Shown in pieces: positions 50,060-64,000 of a stretch of DNA of 64,000 nucleotides. The position numbers and the translations under genes were made by a program. How positions within the stretch are numbered: position 1 is the stretch's first letter; each line of letters starts with the position of its first letter. The notes beneath the pieces were generated by a model. The model ran no database searches, had not been told where the DNA came from, and saw nothing but the letters and a program-made list of their open reading frames with translations. The stretch comes from Candidatus Spongiisociaceae bacterium (lineage in GTDB: Bacteria > Actinomycetota > Acidimicrobiia > Spongiisociales > Spongiisociaceae): NCBI GenBank assembly GCA_965262915.1, contig OZ253564.1, positions 416,001-480,000 on the forward strand, read 5' to 3'.

Positions 50060-50567
50060 ATCAGCAGCCGACGTAGCCGAATCGTCGCCTGCCCATACTG
50101 CTTACGAGCCTCGGCTAGCTTCTTGCGGAGCTCACCCAAATCGTCGAAAAACGCAATCCCGAACTCATTCCCTGTCCCAACAACTGGTTCCCGTACAGGC
50201 GCCATCACGCCCAGCGGATGTTCATAACTGAACTATGCGTACGAACCAGCTGTGACATCCCCTAGGTACCGTTCTGACTAACTGTTGCCCCAGGACAATA
50301 GCCCTTTCTATGGACTCGTGAACACTCCGGTGTTACTTAAGGTGTTCCTATTGGACTATGAAGGAGAACGAACGGGAGGCCATCATGGTACCCCGGGGGA
50401 GCCTACTGGGGGTTCGTGCCCCCCTTGTCTGCTGGTTGAGACAAGTCCTTGGGTTTCGTGGGCCCGCCCTCGATGGTGTATTTGCCTATTCAGAGATATT
50501 GGCAGAGCATCTCTAGTAACAGCCGACCGTTACCCCGATTATGGGCTCATCGATGCTCCTATGGTTG

Positions 50568-51799
50568 TCAAGTCGGTGATGGGGCCGGTTGGTGGGTTAG
50601 GAGCCAGGTCTGGTATTGGCTGGCGAGTTGGTGGTTGTGGTCTCGGCCGCGTTCGAGTGCGGAGATGCGGCTGGGGTGGGTTCCGAGCTGTTGGGCGGCC
50701 TGGGTGACGGTGATGTTGGCGTGTTGACGTCGGCGGCGGAGCCGGGCGCAGTTCGGGGTTGGTGGCGGGTTGGTCAGCAGTCGGTAGATCTGTGGGGCGA
50801 TGTGCCGCTTGAGGCAGCGGATGATCTCTTTTCGGTTCTTTGCTTCCCCCTGGCGCCGTGCCACGTATTGGTTGGTGGCTGCGTCGTGGCGTATCCGGGT
50901 GGTAGCGCATCGGCCAGAGCGCGTTGTTGGCTTGGCGGTTACCTCCCCGGTTGAGACGATGCCGGATGGTCTGTCCCGATGATGCCTGGACGGGGCTGGC
51001 GCCACACAGCGCGGCGAAGGACCGTTCTGATTTCATACGCTGGGGGTTGTCGCCGGCTGCGACTAGCAGGGCGGCTGCTGTGTCAGGGCCCACACCTTTG
51101 GCGGCTAACAGAGCCGGGTTAGCCTCGGCGCAGAGGCGACGGATCTCGATCTTGAGTTCTGCGATTTCTGTGTCGAGGGCTTGGTATCGGCGGGCCAGGT
51201 AGCGTAGAGCCATCTTCGGCGTACGCGGTCGTGGTCTGTGCTTGGCGGGGACGCCAGCGGGCACAGACCCGAACCCGGGCCTTGAGCTTGAGACCTCTGA
51301 GCTGGCGTTTTACCTGTTCAGGTGCAGTAACGGCCACAGAATGGATCTGGTTAGCGGCCTGGGTGCGGGCCTTGGTAGCGGAGCGGCGGGCCATCAACAA
51401 CATCCGTATGCACTCAACGGGGCCGTCACCAGATTTGGGAACTGCGGTAGCTTGCCCCGAGGCCGCTGCCCGAGCTGCCGCCTCGGCGTCGACGCTGTCG
51501 GTCTTGCCGCCCCGCTGGCGGCGTAGCTGCCGGTTCGGCCGGTTCACTTCTACCACCTCGATGCCCGCCGCCATCAGATAGCGGGCTAGGCCGGCGCCGT
51601 AGCTGCCGGTGCCCTCCACTCCTACCCGGAGCAGGTGCCCGTGGGTTCCGAACCACCTGGTCATCTGCTCATATCCGACCGGATCAGCCCCGAACGGAGC
51701 GGTTCCCAGCACTCGACCGGCGTTGTCGACCACCGCCGCAACATGGGTATCACGATGGGTATCAACCCCACCGAACACAACCCGACCATCTTCTTCCAT
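50568..51799 (-). pseudogene. IS110 recombinase with two frameshifts and a C-terminal XRE-like HTH
   Basis: GVDTH, GVEGTG, KTDSVDA (DEDD); GVGP, ASSG, GNRQAN; tail ITVTQAAQQLGTHPSRISALERG; spread over three frames. Confidence 0.88.
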
Positions 51800-51849
51800 G
51801 ACGCCTTCCTCCTCTGTGGGATAGAATCACTTCCTAATCCTCGGACCCG

Positions 51850-52015
51850 GAAGGCGGTTGGACAGACCACTCACGGTGGAGAACTCGAAGGCTCCTATTA
51901 GGTCACATCCGCCCCGGGTCAGGGGGTTACGCCCTAGGCCGGGAACAGGCCGACAGATCGATGAAAAGGCACAAGGCCAGATTTCAGTTGGGTCAGACCC
52001 GTCCCAGCCCAGGAA
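51850..52015 (-). ncRNA. Putative IS110 bridge RNA
   Basis: Two internal-loop stem-loops carrying ACUGAAAUC/UCAUCGAU (match target) and AUAGGAGC/UGAGUGG (match donor junction). Confidence 0.75.
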
Positions 52016-52036
52016 CCTTCTAAGTATGAGTGGATT

Positions 52037-53338
52037 TCAGTGGGGAGTGACGGTGGCGAGGAGGTCCCAGTTGGGTTTCCCCGCGTAGAGGAGTGCCCGG
52101 ATTCGGTAGTTCGCGAAGTTGGGTAACCCGAACGCGATGCGTTTGATCCGCTTTATGAGGTTGTTGAGGGCTTCGGTGGGTCCGTTGGTTACCTTCGAGA
52201 TGTGCCAGTTGGTGATCTGGGGGGTCCAGCGGGCGATGGTACGTCCGAGCTTGTTGATCTCGGGTGGGCAGGATTCGTCCTGGAGGTCGTCTGCGAGCTG
52301 GAGGGTGTATTGGAGAGCGAGGGCGGGGCTGTCGATCTTGTAGATGCCTCTCACGGTTTCCTTCGCGTGCCAGGCTGTGCGCACTTCGCCGTGGGGGTCA
52401 CCAGCGTCGAGGAGTCCGCGCAGGCGGGTTTGGCCGCGGTCGCTGATCTTGTCGTGGGCGGCGGTGAGGAGGCGCCGTATCCCATAGAGTGGGTCTCCTT
52501 TCCGGCCTCTGTGTCCGAGGGTTTCGTTTTGGACTCTTCTGCGTACTTCGTCGAGACGCTGGTTGGCGAGGCGGCTGACACCGAACGGGTCCGCTACCCC
52601 GGGGGCGTGGGGCAGCACCCTGTCATACGCCTTCCGATACGAACCGGACATGACCCGACACCGCCCAGCGGATAGCCTCACACCATTCGGTGGGCTGCGC
52701 CCGGAACCAGGCTGCGGCGCTTTCTGCCGTTCTACCAGGGACTATGTCGATCAGCTGGTGGCCCCCAACGTCGACGACAGAGGTGCACCAGACTTTGGTG
52801 CGCCACCGGCCTTTCCGCCAGAACAACGCTTCTTGTCGATGCCCACAGCTCCGACCTCGCCTATCCGATCGGTGTCGGCTTCCAACAGGGCTTCGCCCCA
52901 GCGGACGACCTCGTTGTTCACCGTATGCCAATCACAACCCAACTCCGCGGCGACCTCGTCGACCGAACGGCCCCGCCCACCCACCTGGACGGTCACCCAC
53001 CGCGCCGCTCGGGATGTCAACAACGCCCGTTCGGGACCAATCGTGGGGTCTTGTTCGATGAACGACCTGAGCGCACAGTCCGGATTCGGACACGTCCAGC
53101 GCCGTTTCCTCCACCGCAGCCGCACAGGCCGACTGAACGCCGGTAAATCCACCAACACCACACTCCGATAGCCCTTCGACCACACCGACCCGCCACATGC
53201 CACACACAACGGGCGGGCCTTGCGGGACCCGATCACCACCTCAAGAGGTGCACCCTCGCCCGGGTCGTTGATCCCCACCAGATCAACCTCACCTAGGCCT
53301 ACCAACTTCTCGCACATGCGCGTAGGATCAGCTTCCAC
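52037..53338 (-). pseudogene. ISL3 transposase, frameshifted
   Basis: Near-identical to 58782-60080 but broken near GIDE and near WAVLDM. Confidence 0.9.
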
Positions 53339-53864
53339 AGGGGTCCTCCTGCCTCGGATGTCATTACCAACACCCGATTATGGAGGACCCCTCCTCACTT
53401 CTGGTGGATTCCAACTCCCCCTGGCAGATCCCCTACTCCCCACTCATTTCCGAAGAGCCCGATTATGCAGGCGGTTCGGGTAGCCTCCACACCTGTGAAC
53501 CCCGTCGAATATCTCCAGTAAGACCGATACCGTGGTCGAAGTCTTGGCCCTCCCGCACCGTGTCCCCACCCTCGGGCCCAGCCGTCGCACAGTTCCTAGC
53601 CGCCAAACCCCTGTCCGCCAACGGGTCACGCGGACTCAAATCAGGGTCCCACGTCAGAACGAAGCGCCGCTCAGCTCCACGGACACGCTTCCCTGTCGTT
53701 GGTTGCGTTCTCACGGCACGACGAGGCTACTCATCCCTGGCTAACCGAGGCGGGTCGAGCCAATCGCTGGGAGGTTGTTGCGGCTTGGTCGTGCTTCAAC
53801 CGCTTCTCATAGGCGCCGAAGGCGCTTGGCGGCCCGCTCGACTATGACGCCACCTGTCTGCTGC

Positions 53865-58768: not shown

Positions 58769-60202
58769 GGCTCATCGGATTTCAGTGGGGAGTGACGGTG
58801 GCGAGGAGGTCCCAGTTGGGTTTCCCGGCGTAGAGAAGGGCGCGGATTCGGTAGTTCGCGAAGTTGCGGAACCCGAACGCGATGCGTTTGATCCGCTTTA
58901 TGAGGTTGTTGAGGGCTTCGGTGGGTCCGTTGGTTACCTTCGAGATGTGCCAGTTGGTGATCTGGGGGGTCCAGCGGGCGATGGTGCGACCGAGCTTGTT
59001 GATCTCGGGTGGGCAGGATTCGTGTTGGAGGTCGTCTGCGAGCTGGAGGGTGTATCGGAGAGCAAGGACCGGACTTTCGATCCCGTAGATGCCTCGTACC
59101 GTTTCCTTCGCGTGCCAGGCTGTGCGTACCTCCCCGTAGGGGTCACCGGCATCCAAAAGACCACGCAGCCGTGTTTGACCGCGGTCGCTGATCCTCTCGT
59201 GGGCGGCGGTGAGGAGGCGGCGTATCCGATACAGCGGGTCATCCTTGCGGCCTCGATGCCCGAGGGTTTCGTTCTGGGTGCGGCGTCGTACTTCGTCGAG
59301 TCGCTGGTTGGCGAGGCGGATGACGTGGAAGGGGTCTGCTACCTGGAGAGCGTTCGGGAGCACCCGGTTATACGCCTTCCGGTAAGGACCGGACATGTCC
59401 AACACCGCCCAGCGGATCCCGTCGAGCCACTCGGGGGGTTGGGATCGGAACCACGAAGCTGCGCTATCAGCCGTTCTACCAGGGACTATGTCGATCAGCT
59501 GGTGGCCTCCCACGTCGACGACAGAGGTGCACCAAACCTTGGTGCGCCACCGGCCTTTCCGCCAGAACAGCGTCTCGTCGATGCCCACAGCTTGGACCTC
59601 GCCTATCCGATCGGTGTCGGCCCCCAGGAGGGCTTCGCCCCAGCGGACGACCTCGTTGTTAACCGTATGCCAATCACAACCCAGCTCTGCGGCGACCTCG
59701 TCGACCGAACGGCCCCGCCCACCCACCTGGATGGTCACCCACCGGGCCGCTCGGGATGTCAACAACGCCCGTTGGGGACCAATCGTGGGGTCTTGTTCGA
59801 TGAACGATCTGATCTCACAGTCGGGGTTCGGGCACGTCCAGCGGCGTTTCCGCCACCGCAGCCGAACCGGACGGCCGAACGCCGGTAGATCCACCAACAC
59901 AACCGTTCTGTGACCCTTGGACCACACCGGGCCGCCACAGGACTCACACAACGGGCGGGGCTTGCGGGAACGGATCACCACCCCAAGCGGTGCACCCTCG
60001 CCCGAGTCGTTGATCCCTACCAGATCAACGTCGCCCAGGCCTACCAACAACTCGCACATGCGCGTAGGATCAGCTTCCACAGGGGTCCTCCTGCCTCGGA
60101 TGTCTTTTCTCAGCACCCGATTATGGAGGACCCCCCATCACTTCTGGTGGATTACCACTCCCCCTGGCAGATCCCCGACTCCCCACTCATTTCCGAAGAG
60201 CC
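58769..60202 (-). mobile_element. ISL3-family element copy 2 (intact, 1434 bp)
   Basis: IRs GGCTCATCGGATTTCAGTGGGG / CCCCACTCATTTCCGAAGAGCC; 8-bp TSD AGTAATGC. Confidence 0.95.
58782..60080 (-). CDS. ISL3-family transposase
   Basis: Zn finger CESCG..CPNPDC, GIDE, DM..Y, DPFHV, TNGPTEALNNLIK..GFRNFANY. Confidence 0.95.
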   Translation of the reverse strand: MEADPTRMCELLVGLGDVDLVGINDSGEGAPLGVVIRSRKPRPLCESCGGPVWSKGHRTVVLVDLPAFGRPVRLRWRKRRWTCPNPDCEIRSFIEQDPTIGPQRALLTSRAARWVTIQVGGRGRSVDEVAAELGCDWHTVNNEVVRWGEALLGADTDRIGEVQAVGIDETLFWRKGRWRTKVWCTSVVDVGGHQLIDIVPGRTADSAASWFRSQPPEWLDGIRWAVLDMSGPYRKAYNRVLPNALQVADPFHVIRLANQRLDEVRRRTQNETLGHRGRKDDPLYRIRRLLTAAHERISDRGQTRLRGLLDAGDPYGEVRTAWHAKETVRGIYGIESPVLALRYTLQLADDLQHESCPPEINKLGRTIARWTPQITNWHISKVTNGPTEALNNLIKRIKRIAFGFRNFANYRIRALLYAGKPNWDLLATVTPH

Positions 60203-63335: not shown

Positions 63336-64000
63336 GGCTCATCGCGTTTCAGTGGGGAGTGACGGTCGCGAGTAGGTCCCAGTTGGGTTTCCCGGCGTAG
63401 AGAAGGGCGCGGATTCGGTAGTTCGCGAAGTTGGGTAACCCGAACGCTGCTCGTTTGATCCGTTTGATTAGGTTGTTGAGGGCTTCGGTGGCGTCTGTTG
63501 GTTACCTTCGAGATGTGCCAGTTGGTGATCTGGGGGGTCCAGCGGGCGATGGTGCGACCCAGCTTGTTGATCTCGGGTGGGCAGGATTCGTCCTGGAGGT
63601 CGTCTGCGAGCTGGAGGGTGTATCGGAGAGCAAGGACCGGACTCTCGATCCCGTAGATGCCCCGTACCGTTTCGGTTGCGTGCCAGGCTGTGCGTACCTC
63701 CCCGTGGGGGTCACCGGCATCGAGGAGGCCACGCAGCCGTGTTTGACCGCGGTCGCTGATCCTCTCATGCGCGGCGGTGAGGAGGCGGCGTATCCGATAC
63801 AGCGGGTCATCCTTGCGGCCTCTGTGTCCCAGGGTCTCGTTGGGGACCCTTCGTCGTAGGTCGTCGAGACGCTGGTTGGCTAGGCGGATGACACCGAACG
63901 GGTCCGCTACCTGCAGCGCGTGGGGCAGCACCCTGTCATACGCCTTCCGATACGAACCGGACATGACCCGACACCGCCCAGCGGATAGCCTCACACCATT
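63336..64000 (-). mobile_element. ISL3-family element copy 3 (frameshifted, runs off window)
   Basis: Begins GGCTCATCGCGTTTCAGTGGGG; homologous to copies 1 and 2. Confidence 0.92.

Follow-up and report, generated by a model that had tools for sequence, protein, structure and literature searches.

A decayed IS110-family element with a candidate guide RNA in its left end, very probably targeted to the terminal inverted repeat of an ISL3 element

The window analysed here (the whole stretch of DNA, 64,000 nt) holds an ISL3 element with one terminal inverted repeat (IR) interrupted by an IS110-family element, which raises the question of what directed the insertion to this very position. We consider it very probable that the insert is a decayed member of the IS110 subgroup, with a guide RNA encoded in its left end, and that it entered the terminal IR of ISL3 by RNA-guided, site-specific insertion. 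The two elements comprise the following features:

50536–50543, no strand: left 8-bp target-site duplication CGATTATG, from the ISL3 insertion, read directly
50544–50552, minus strand: outer 9 bp of the ISL3 IR, GGCTCATCG, at the 3′ end of the ISL3 transposase gene
50553–52032, minus strand: IS110-family element (subfamily A), 1480 bp; its flanks sum to an intact IR with no base lost
50566–50571, minus strand: TTGACA, a perfect −35-like hexamer, 13 nt from the right end
50568–51799, minus strand: IS110 recombinase pseudogene (DEDD RuvC-like domain, Transposase_20 and C-terminal HTH)
51800–52032, minus strand: left non-coding end, 233 nt, encoding a bridge-RNA-like transcript; guides invariant in 17 copies of subfamilies A and B
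52033–53459, minus strand: ISL3 body (inner part of the split IR, transposase pseudogene and other IR)
52033–52045, minus strand: inner part of the split ISL3 IR, GATTTCAGTGGGG
52037–53338, minus strand: ISL3 transposase pseudogene, with its stop codon within the IR
53438–53459, minus strand: other ISL3 IR
53460–53467, no strand: right copy of the 8-bp target-site duplication CGATTATG, read directly
58769–58790, plus strand: intact, unoccupied 22-nt IR of a second ISL3 copy, that is, an empty target (G000:C1:474769-474790)

The insertion severs the outer 9 bp of the IR from the remainder, and GGCTCATCG joined to GATTTCAGTGGGG gives the 22-nt IR found intact in the second ISL3 copy, with the G at 50552 being the complement of the crossover C that is shared at the right junction. 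Both the bounds of the ISL3 copy, set by the duplication CGATTATG, and the splitting of its IR had been proposed in the initial annotation and were found as described there. In gene orientation the IS110 element starts with CACTCAT and ends with ATAGGAGCAT, and no terminal inverted repeats occur on it (50553–52032). The assignment of the host to the ISL3 family agrees with the 22-nt IRs and matching 8-bp duplications found at many of its copies, and with the Pfam matches to DDE_Tnp_ISL3 and to HTH and Zn-ribbon pieces on 52037–53338 (minus strand), although the ISL3 gene of the window copy is broken as well. More generally, occupied ISL3 copies are more decayed, with a full ORF in 3 of 13, than free copies, 15 of 17 of which retain one. 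The insertion may disable one IR of its host and abolish ISL3 mobility, and the IR would constitute a safe site for the IS110 element.

Pfam searches of 50539–51799 (minus strand) identified DEDD_Tnp_IS110 (PF01548, E 1e-23) and the C-terminal Tnp domain Transposase_20 (PF02371, E 9e-16), spread over two frames. The gene is broken by two +1 frameshifts, near 51218/51219 and near 50908, which had already been recognised, and the window copy is a dead pseudogene. An intact 409-aa homologue is located at G000:C1:3663651-3664877; it scores 206.2 bits (cut-off 140) over residues 10–343 with the NCBIfam model NF033542, 'IS110 family RNA-guided transposase', and matches by sequence the solved transposases of ISCro4 (E 3e-14) and IS621 (E 5e-11). 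Its residues D13, E62, D101, D104 and S274 align with D13, E62, D104, D107 and S243 of the IS621 chain, numbered as the D11, E60, D102, D105 and S241 of the paper plus 2, and all five catalytic residues are kept in the intact 409-aa copies. The recombinase has around 65 additional C-terminal residues, with an HTH_31/HTH_3 match, which lie outside both the NF033542 model and the solved IS621 chain. All four guides can be read, as noted in the initial annotation, which proposed a candidate programmable recombinase; the candidates for an active enzyme are the intact copies elsewhere in the genome, the window copy being a pseudogene.

The left non-coding end contains two predicted domains, each enclosing a pair of guide segments, and the four segments occur on the minus strand exactly where the initial annotation had placed them:

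51937–52010, minus strand: target-binding domain (RNAalifold)
51980–51988, minus strand: left target guide ACUGAAAUC (DNA ACTGAAATC), in top-strand sense of the left half of the IR
51957–51964, minus strand: right target guide UCAUC followed by an invariant GAU (DNA TCATCGAT), covarying with the right flank
51839–51922, minus strand: donor-binding domain, with a basal stem of 51922–51909 and 51857–51839 enclosing the donor guides
51891–51898, minus strand: left donor guide AUAGGAGC (DNA ATAGGAGC), identical to the right-end sequence 50562–50555
51867–51873, minus strand: right donor guide UGAGUGG (DNA TGAGTGG), with reverse complement CCACTCA, the start of the left end plus the preceding C

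The arrangement of these guides is that described for bridge RNAs by Durrant et al. (2024). In the RNAalifold prediction, the target-binding domain consists of a basal stem (52010–51992 with 51954–51937), an internal loop and a distal hairpin (51978–51968). The target-loop stem covaries: 94.2% of cells are paired, versus 35–50% when the arms are slid, there are five compensatory pairs with changes on both sides, and the covariation score was 0.228 versus 0.126, a value reached by none of 500 shuffles. Duplex folding of the arms gave a basal stem of 16–18 bp per family for the donor domain, which changes in step between families (cognate arms, −26.8 kcal/mol; non-cognate arms, −20.1 kcal/mol), and the foldings gave no resolved hairpin for the inner donor loop. 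These data support a two-loop structure. The left donor guide motif occurs twice, in the left end (LE) and at the right end (RE), and the reverse complement of the right target guide, ATCGATGA, equals the right junction (the AT of the RE end, C, and GATGA). Since the donor guides and ends hardly vary between families, donor pairing is backed by sequence match rather than by covariation; the G adjoining UGAGUG appears only in guide sets whose target has a C before the crossover C (4/4). The minimum free energy of the left end has a z-score of only −2.2, and the covariance models of Rfam 15, which may or may not include one for bridge RNAs, gave no match at E ≤ 1 in 50400–53600. The only signal in RNA libraries consists of two contigs at a depth of 2–3 from one metatranscriptome, and may be DNA carry-over.

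If these segments guide insertion, other copies should lie at the same site, and a comparison of the flanks of all copies bore this out with a single exception. The genome contains 17 close IS110 copies (subfamilies A and B; identity 80–100%), of which 16 are inserted at the same IR position and in the same orientation; the identical IS110–ISL3 junction occurs at 15 genomic loci with differing unique flanks and matching 8-bp duplications. Both counts place the arrangement far beyond chance. The guides are invariant in all 17 copies despite an element divergence of up to 19%, and the two such copies on the chromosome of a second genome, an Acidimicrobiia MAG (A-type, 96.7%; B-type, 80%), occupy the same ISL3 IR position (2/2). 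ISL3 ends of a variant with CG instead of GA beside the crossover are occupied in 0 of 8 cases, versus 16 of 33 for the matching type (Fisher p 0.014, with related copies counted that are not independent); within the clade of CG-type elements, the occupied copy (1145772) is also the sole one whose target-side IR belongs to the matching type. The exceptional copy (G000:C1:3663633-3665110) has identical guides and its site matches 5 of 9 plus 1 of 5 guide positions, indicating that base pairing does not explain every insertion.

Alternatively, an ISL3 already bearing the IS110 element could have been copied as a unit by ISL3 transposase acting in trans, with the interrupted IR still functional, and the loci would then not be independent. 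We regard this as unlikely overall, although the window copy itself speaks in its favour: together with the copy at G000:C1:2151254-2154160 it forms a pair of mutual nearest relatives (1.4% apart in IS110 and 3.0% in ISL3) that share a +1 frameshift in ISL3 and another in IS110, each with its own perfect 8-bp duplication. Moreover, contigs of runs X1 and X4 represent an allele that lacks the whole 2924-bp insert and has one copy of the duplication (50533 joined to 53458), and the absence of the unit from some members of the population indicates that the unit, decayed as it is, did not become fixed long ago. Even in this pair, however, divergence in ISL3 is about double that in IS110, as would fit a later arrival of the latter. 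For the other copies the IS110 and ISL3 trees disagree (Mantel r 0.20, reached by 280 of 5000 permutations), and the nine B copies, which are identical or 0.1–0.7% apart, reside in ISL3 hosts that are 1.4–12% apart, indicating repeated independent insertions. Likewise, over 1424 nt one occupied ISL3 does not differ from any of 10 free copies with a 22-nt IR, and a mere 9 bp of IR remains at the ISL3 tip, both of which argue against copying as a unit.

Independent insertion at a preferred site could also be dictated by the recombinase protein, for instance by its extra C-terminal HTH, or by the DNA structure of the IR, the matches to the RNA being incidental. The HTH extension of about 65 residues beyond the NF033542 model and the IS621 chain, and the copy with unchanged guides at a poorly matching site, are compatible with this explanation, as is a structural layer of target recognition reported for ISPpu10 in the abstract of a 2026 preprint. 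It is nevertheless highly improbable in view of the covariation between guides and flanks. For this comparison we used 13 guide sets, from this genome and related genomes, covering 21 insertion contexts. In 19 of the 21, the flanks match their own guides at 12–14 of 14 positions, as compared with a mean of 5.8 of 14 for 368 non-cognate pairings, only three of which reach 11; the window element matches at 9/9 plus 5/5 positions. Recombinases that are 67–80% identical use seven different guide sets in this genome, and each set matches its own flanks. Similarly, the pentanucleotide that precedes GAUCUG agrees with the right flank at 4–5 of 5 positions in 19 of 21 contexts, this right guide changing exactly with the flank while the surrounding RNA remains constant. 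Together with the repeated independent insertions and the covarying two-domain RNA, these results substantiate the earlier suggestion that the guides are tuned to an ISL3 end.

An assembly artefact as the source of the nesting, or chance as the source of the complementarity, has a negligible probability: multicopy repeats are open to assembler misjoins and the Logan contigs break at repeat borders, none spanning the whole stretch, but the same junction recurs at the 15 loci and in the second genome, a contig of the independent run X3 reads from unique flank through the duplication and the tip of the IR into the right end of IS110, of which it covers 19 nt, and four segments of 7–9 nt in the expected order and strands have an estimated chance probability below 1e-9 for the 233-nt end.

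The crossover can also be located. With one C shared, the flanks of occupied sites add up to exactly the 22 nt of the intact IR, the same base accounting holds for a family D insertion and its empty site, and this C is the only base common to donor and target at the crossover. The initial annotation had warned that the ideal target of the guides is one G shorter than the IR and that the core was therefore ambiguous. The first part stands, as guide overlap predicts 21 nt versus the 22-nt IR; the ambiguity is resolved to one C, and the identity of an occupied ISL3 to 10 free copies with a 22-nt IR indicates that the target was the 22-nt and not a 21-nt repeat. The left target guide appears to pair with an offset of one position relative to four sister families; at the crossover C this would probably require either a G-U pair or a base left unpaired.

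We propose that a left-end RNA with putative ends and a putative length of roughly 170–190 nt would fold into two stem-enclosed internal loops. The first would read the ISL3 repeat and the second the joined ends of the element, with the right end matched by AUAGGAGC and the left end by UGAGUG(G). Numbered as in IS621, the target would be CTGAAAT-CC-GATGA and the donor AGGAGCA-TC-ACTCA, with the second core base, C, alone in common; the exact register of core pairing is putative. The 3′ halves of both loops would match the junctions formed after strand exchange, which fits the handshake pairing of IS621. A presumed circular copy would then recombine with the repeat, placing the element 9 bp from the ISL3 tip, always in one orientation, just after the stop codon of the ISL3 transposase. 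IS110 elements are reported to reconstitute a promoter across the RE–LE junction (Durrant et al., 2024; PMC11208160), and on such a circle TTGACA would sit 17 nt upstream of CATACT (LE positions 5–10), as judged from a pattern match only; a promoter scan of the linear region found no minus-strand promoter.

The element resembles IS621 and related IS110-subgroup recombinases that use bridge RNAs (Durrant et al., 2024; Hiraizumi et al., 2024, PMC11208158) in its DEDD RuvC-like and Tnp domains with a catalytic Ser, in a non-coding RNA in the left end, upstream of the gene, with two internal loops whose 5′ sides are in top-strand sense (8–9 nt) and whose 3′ sides are complementary to the top strand (5–7 nt), in the lack of terminal inverted repeats with scarless insertion around a short core, in 3′ guide halves that match the post-exchange junctions, and perhaps, on a pattern match only, in a −35-like box in the right end that might contribute to a promoter on the circle. 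It differs in the weak protein match by sequence and the C-terminal HTH, in an invariant core base that is C instead of T (NC versus CT), in a first core base that differs between donor (T) and target (C), in an apparent shift of the left target guide by one position and in a natural target that is an IS end rather than a REP element; besides, the present element is known from sequence alone.

Residence in the repeats of other mobile elements has precedents. IS1383, also of the IS110 family, is reported to integrate specifically into the inverted repeats of the co-resident IS1384 in Pseudomonas putida H (Muller et al., 2001); host phylum, target IS family and target sequence are different. IS4321/IS5075, of the IS1111 subgroup, are aimed at the terminal IRs of transposons of the Tn21 family (Partridge and Hall, 2003), which has been explained by a seekRNA (Siddiquee et al., 2024; PMC11187229); insertion is likewise RNA-guided and orientation-specific at one position of a terminal repeat, which is split, but the IS1111 subgroup is described as having its guide RNA downstream of the gene and subterminal inverted repeats, whereas the element described here is of the IS110 subgroup. 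Multicopy, non-essential targets with many identical landing sites are also reported for ISPpu9/ISPpu10 and further IS110 elements that insert into REP sequences, although these sequences are part of the host and not another mobile element. Both IS110 bridge RNAs and the targeting of transposon IRs by the IS110 family (IS1383/IS1384, IS5075/Tn21) are thus already described, the latter being cited as prior art in the bridge-RNA papers, and the novelty initially attributed to this locus was overstated. For the field as a whole, existing knowledge is confirmed rather than changed; with ISL3 as the host element, the locus extends the short list of IS110-family elements residing in transposon ends and hints that such nesting restrains the host IS.

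The targets of the clade found here are two kinds of ISL3 end, the right ends of sibling IS110 elements, another IS110-type gene and the tail of an IS5/IS1182-like element. A broader interpretation, which taken as a whole we find rather doubtful, is that the IS110 clade of this lineage lives almost wholly on other mobile elements, in an arms race between guides and repeats. If so, ISL3 lineages would escape through the two IR bases beside the crossover, as in the never-occupied CG variant, and IS110 lineages would adjust their guides by single halves in turn. Insertion directly after the ISL3 stop codon and in the same direction would link expression of bridge RNA and recombinase to read-through out of the host IS. 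Activity of that host would then turn on the parasite, and for the bacterium the expansion of ISL3 would in effect be capped. The intact copies also provide recombinases that have an NC core and an additional HTH domain and stem from a lineage of high-GC actinobacteria distant from IS621. Finally, a single genome offers a natural experiment on bridge-RNA targeting, with 16 on-target insertions and one off-target insertion, 17 empty matching sites, 8 unused near-cognate sites and six sister guide sets with other targets, the 22-bp site, the 21-bp site, the 2-base variant and the other IR serving as natural controls of specificity.

Within the window, an IS110-family element, now a pseudogene, interrupts one terminal inverted repeat (IR) of an ISL3 copy, in the following arrangement.

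Organization of the nested locus, read directly from the sequence
50536-50543, plus strand reading: end of the unique flank, CGATTATG, which is the duplication
50544-50552, plus strand reading: IR piece GGCTCATCG
50553-52032, gene on the minus strand: IS110 insert of 1480 bp (direct sequence and Pfam)
52033-52045, plus strand reading: IR piece GATTTCAGTGGGG, followed by the ISL3 remainder to 53459
53460-53467, plus strand reading: second copy of CGATTATG

Joined, the two IR pieces give GGCTCATCGGATTTCAGTGGGG, the 22-nt repeat found in an intact ISL3 copy (58769-58790), and the insertion parts the terminal 9 bp of the IR from the remainder of the repeat. Pfam searches located pieces of the ISL3 transposase on the minus strand (52037-53338) and, in the insert, domains DEDD_Tnp_IS110 and Transposase_20, also on the minus strand and split between two frames; the ISL3 stop codon is 4 nt short of the IS110 insertion point, and the insertion left the ISL3 gene intact. 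The initial annotation had described in the IS110 element four segments resembling bridge-RNA guides, tuned to the ISL3 IR, and a motif search found all four at exactly those positions. The other ISL3 repeat (53438-53459) contains CCACTCAT, which corresponds to the start of the IS110 left end (LE) plus the preceding C and is therefore also complementary to the right donor guide (RDG); this match may be a coincidence, because the same LE start is found in families with other targets.

Blast comparison of the insert with the single 5.06-Mb contig containing the window retrieved 42 matching pieces, 31 of them long. Two close subfamilies with the same guides total 17 copies: A, with eight copies (92-100% identity to the window copy), and B, with nine (ca. 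81%). In gene orientation, the left flank ...CCCCACTGAAATC is found in 16 of the 17 copies (one diverged at 2 bases), and the right flank of those with an intact right end (RE) is CGATGAGCC (10 copies) or CGAAGAGCC (four copies). Alignment of the flanks, as proposed in the initial annotation, thus places 16 of the 17 A and B copies in the same ISL3 repeat, at the same position and in the same orientation. A census of ISL3 ends of the target side identified 45, of which 16 are occupied, 17 are free and matching (including one 21-nt variant), eight are free and belong to a subfamily with CG replacing GA next to the insertion point, and four are more diverged. None of the eight CG ends is occupied (Fisher p 0.014, with the proviso that related copies are not independent), and the sole copy of the CG-type clade with a matching-type target-side repeat is an occupied one. 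A third ISL3 copy, of this never-occupied CG subfamily, begins at window position 63345 and continues past the window end (64000); the longest ORF is merely 235 aa in all five full-length free CG copies.

The remaining A copy (L002, G000:C1:3663633-3665110, in coordinates of the source contig) is outside ISL3. Its identity to the window copy is 99%, its guides are the same and its 409-aa gene is intact. It directly follows the end of an IS5/IS1182-like transposase gene (Pfam DDE_Tnp_1, DDE_Tnp_1_6, DUF772), past the stop codon, within a repeat of at least 12 copies; the guides match this site at just 5/9 and 1/5 positions. It is a natural off-target insertion, once more into another IS; off-target insertion through partial matches is among the properties reported for IS621. 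The reverse nesting occurs at L017 (G000:C1:4175386-4178261), where an ISL3 copy from the currently expanding lineage, identical to 10 others, is inserted in the 3' end of a B copy with duplication ACCAAACC.

The initial annotation also noted that the ideal target of the guides was one G shorter than the IR. This caveat is resolved in favor of the 22-nt repeat as the pre-insertion site: one of the occupied ISL3 elements has the same sequence as 10 free copies that carry this repeat, and on this ground the 21-nt variant, present in one free copy (G000:C1:306078), is ruled out as the true target. The flanks, of 13 and 9 nt, make up the full repeat if the element is written CACTCAT...GGAGCAT or, equivalently, with one C at both junctions, and the same base accounting holds for sister family D against its own empty site. 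In the numbering of IS621, with 14-nt sites and the core at positions 8-9 (Hiraizumi et al., PMC11208158), the target is CTGAAAT-CC-GATGA and the donor AGGAGCA-TC-ACTCA; the only core base common to both is the C at position 9, whereas position 8 is specific to each partner. This resembles IS621, in which the second core base is described as nearly invariant and the first as less conserved (PMC11208158).

Reverse-complemented, the 3' side of the target loop reads ATCGATGA, which is the right junction after exchange (RE ...A, TC, then GATGA), in agreement with the handshake logic described for IS621 (PMC11208158). In the donor loop, the base adjoining UGAGUG is G only in guide sets with a target C at position 8 (4/4), and U in the other 14 sets, with targets A (8), T (6) and C (1), one set being entered under both A and T. 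[quoted passage not shown] The equivalent 9-mer ends at position 9 in four sister families, so that the one-base discrepancy of the initial annotation corresponds to a one-base shift in the register of this guide.

The source genome contains further IS110 subfamilies, with recombinases 67-80% identical, whose LEs keep the frame GUCUGAC-N3-[9 nt]-UGGC...GCC-UUU-[5 nt]-GAUCUGUCG, with variation in the bracketed segments. Together, the source genome and its relatives provided 31 different insertion contexts (both flanks are known for 21) and 13 guide sets, a second genome contributing additional sets of the same kind. The covariation of guides and targets expected from the initial annotation was borne out: in 19 of the 21 contexts the element's own guides match at 12-14 of 14 positions, the two poorly matching ones being the off-target A copy (6/14) and one interrupted element (9/14), whereas the mean for 368 non-cognate pairings of guides and flanks is 5.8 and the highest value 12, three of them reaching 11. 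That the IS110 element is guided to the ISL3 repeat is well supported.

Sister elements with other guides (among them L026, G000:C1:4996100-4997573, and L022-L024, at 713844-715333, 1292113-1293602 and 1730396-1731885) occupy other sites. Family D lies immediately 3' of a transposase gene belonging to another, distinct ISL3-family element (Pfam DDE_Tnp_ISL3), with an intact empty site near 544600, and family C1 interrupts the 3' portion of a distant gene of the IS110 family (Pfam Transposase_20). Families E and C3 are targeted to two positions, separated by 20 nt, of a single ca. 130-bp repeat with at least 13 copies (G000:C1:541942-546194, 2007816-2009293, 2809329-2810806, 3639893-3641372 and 4419106-4420586). 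Elements L055 (genome G002) and L074-L076 (G041), with left target guide UUGACAAAC or UUUGCAAAC, are sited in the RE, at the -35 region, of sibling IS110 elements, and are thus IS110s parasitising IS110s. At L035, L045 and L051 (G021), a full element is preceded by ca. 50 nt of a second LE, which is cut off just past the DNA for its left target guide. The element seems to have inserted into the guide-coding DNA of another copy, a stretch that inherently resembles the left half of the target.

RNAalifold, applied to an alignment of 22 distinct LEs (A1), predicted a target domain with a basal stem, an internal loop containing both target guides and a distal GGC/GCC hairpin. Its 18 predicted pairs are paired in 94.2% of cells, versus 35-50% with the partner slid by 1-3 columns, and five of the 18 show changes in both partners; a covariation score of 0.228 was obtained, versus 0.126 in shuffled alignments (reached by 0/500 shuffles). 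The donor loop, its inner part included, was not recovered by RNAalifold on this LE alignment. The donor guides are, however, enclosed by a 16-18-bp stem with arms upstream of GUGACC and downstream of UGUCC, which in duplex folding average -26.8 kcal/mol for cognate arms and -20.1 with arms from other families, including one mis-cut row (G002_L043). Single-sequence folding of the LE (z = -2.2) mainly paired the RDG with the LE start, which we rejected as an RNA fold since it is the guide-donor match seen in cis. Rfam produced zero matches in window 50400-53600 at E <= 1.

The IS110 gene of the window carries +1 insertions near 51218/51219 and 50908, and contigs of public runs contain other copies without exactly those two inserted bases. 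By our count, the 409-aa frame is intact in 12 of the 17 A and B copies. The product of one of these (G000:C1:3663651-3664877) reaches 206 bits on NF033542, above the cut-off of 140, and also aligns with the solved transposases of ISCro4 and IS621, including at all five catalytic residues. Its residues 344-409 (window 50568-50760, minus strand), an extension of ca. 65 residues present in all subfamilies, match HTH_31/HTH_3 (XRE-type) and lie beyond both NF033542 and the solved chains of IS621 and ISCro4.

By analogy, the mechanism is most likely that of IS621. A circular copy of the IS110 element would express the LE RNA from a putative promoter formed by TTGACA, 13 nt from the RE end, and a -10-like hexamer in the LE, with a 17-nt spacer according to pattern matching and arithmetic; a promoter reconstituted across the RE-LE junction of the circle is described for IS110 elements (Durrant et al., 2024, PMC11208160). 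This RNA would link the ISL3 repeat to the junction of the circle, with strand exchange at the common C carried out by the DEDD/Ser recombinase. Such a target could offer many identical landing sites, harmless to the host and replenished by each transposition of ISL3; at present, there are ten identical free ISL3 copies. IS110 bridge RNAs and their natural reprogramming are established (PMC11208160, PMC11187229), and IS110-family elements that target transposon repeats are already cited in that literature, as IS1383 in IS1384 and IS4321/IS5075 in Tn21-type repeats. Novelty here lies in the pairing of this IS110-subgroup element with an ISL3 repeat, in the lineage, in an NC core whose first base differs between donor and target, in the shifted guide register and in the extra HTH, as well as in the density of natural controls for bridge-RNA targeting. 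Our literature search did not turn up a publication describing an IS110 element lodged in an ISL3 repeat, and ISL3 occurs 0 times in PMC11187229; the supplementary tables (Durrant 2024; Siddiquee 2024), which cover the natural targets of a great number of IS110 elements, may already list this family or ISL3 targets.

Most nested loci are separate IS110 insertions, because the nine B copies are 0-0.7% apart whereas their respective ISL3 hosts are 1.4-12% apart, and one occupied ISL3 shows no difference from 10 free copies across 1424 nt. The distance matrices of IS110 and ISL3 correlate weakly (Mantel r 0.20 for 13 pairs, reached by 280 of 5000 permutations). For the window copy and its nearest relative (G000:C1:2151254), movement of ISL3::IS110 as a unit, with help in trans, is an alternative explanation, as they have one frameshift in common in ISL3 and another in IS110. 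The same IS110 +1 frameshift after ca. residue 295 occurs in four A copies (window 50908; 2151254, 4977455 and 660551) within four different ISL3 hosts, which suggests that defective A copies moved in trans or that the frameshift spread by recombination or gene conversion. An ISL3 ORF of at least 432 aa is retained by three of 13 occupied and 15 of 17 free copies (p 5e-4, related copies not being independent); this higher decay would fit immobilisation by the insertion, and would fit equally well older copies, longer exposed to hits.

Beyond the source genome, the 19-mer of the junction was found in one other species genome among 185,579 scanned, the chromosome of an Acidimicrobiia MAG, which contains A-type (96.7%) and B-type (80%) copies, each within the same ISL3 repeat. 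We estimate ca. 4 chance matches for a 19-mer in 596 Gb, and rejected as such a Pseudomonas match (one of three in genome contigs) and five in metagenome contigs, the latter five having no IS110 or ISL3 homology. The junction was absent from 40 relatives searched, though the IR, with up to one mismatch, is present in 13 of them; related LEs with other guides occur in 10 of the 40.

In each of sixteen public runs, drawn from several studies, at least half of the words sampled from the stretch are present. The evidence from runs comes from assembled contigs; positions without contig cover are uninformative. An RNA run (X19) yielded two contigs at depth 2-3, which we did not count as expression. 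Contigs from two independent metagenomes (X1 and X4) join 50533 to 53458, with the whole 2924-bp ISL3::IS110 unit missing; therefore, part of the natural population lacks the unit at this locus, though both nested genes are already broken. A contig from run X3 crosses the flank, the IR tip and the IS110 end. Another X1 contig, set aside as evidence together with a go-back joint from 52362 to 52032 in run X3, connects positions 50561 and 52022 through one intervening letter. It would leave only ca. 9 nt of the RE and 11 nt of the LE inside the ISL3 repeat, and could represent a remnant, the end of another family or an alignment artefact.
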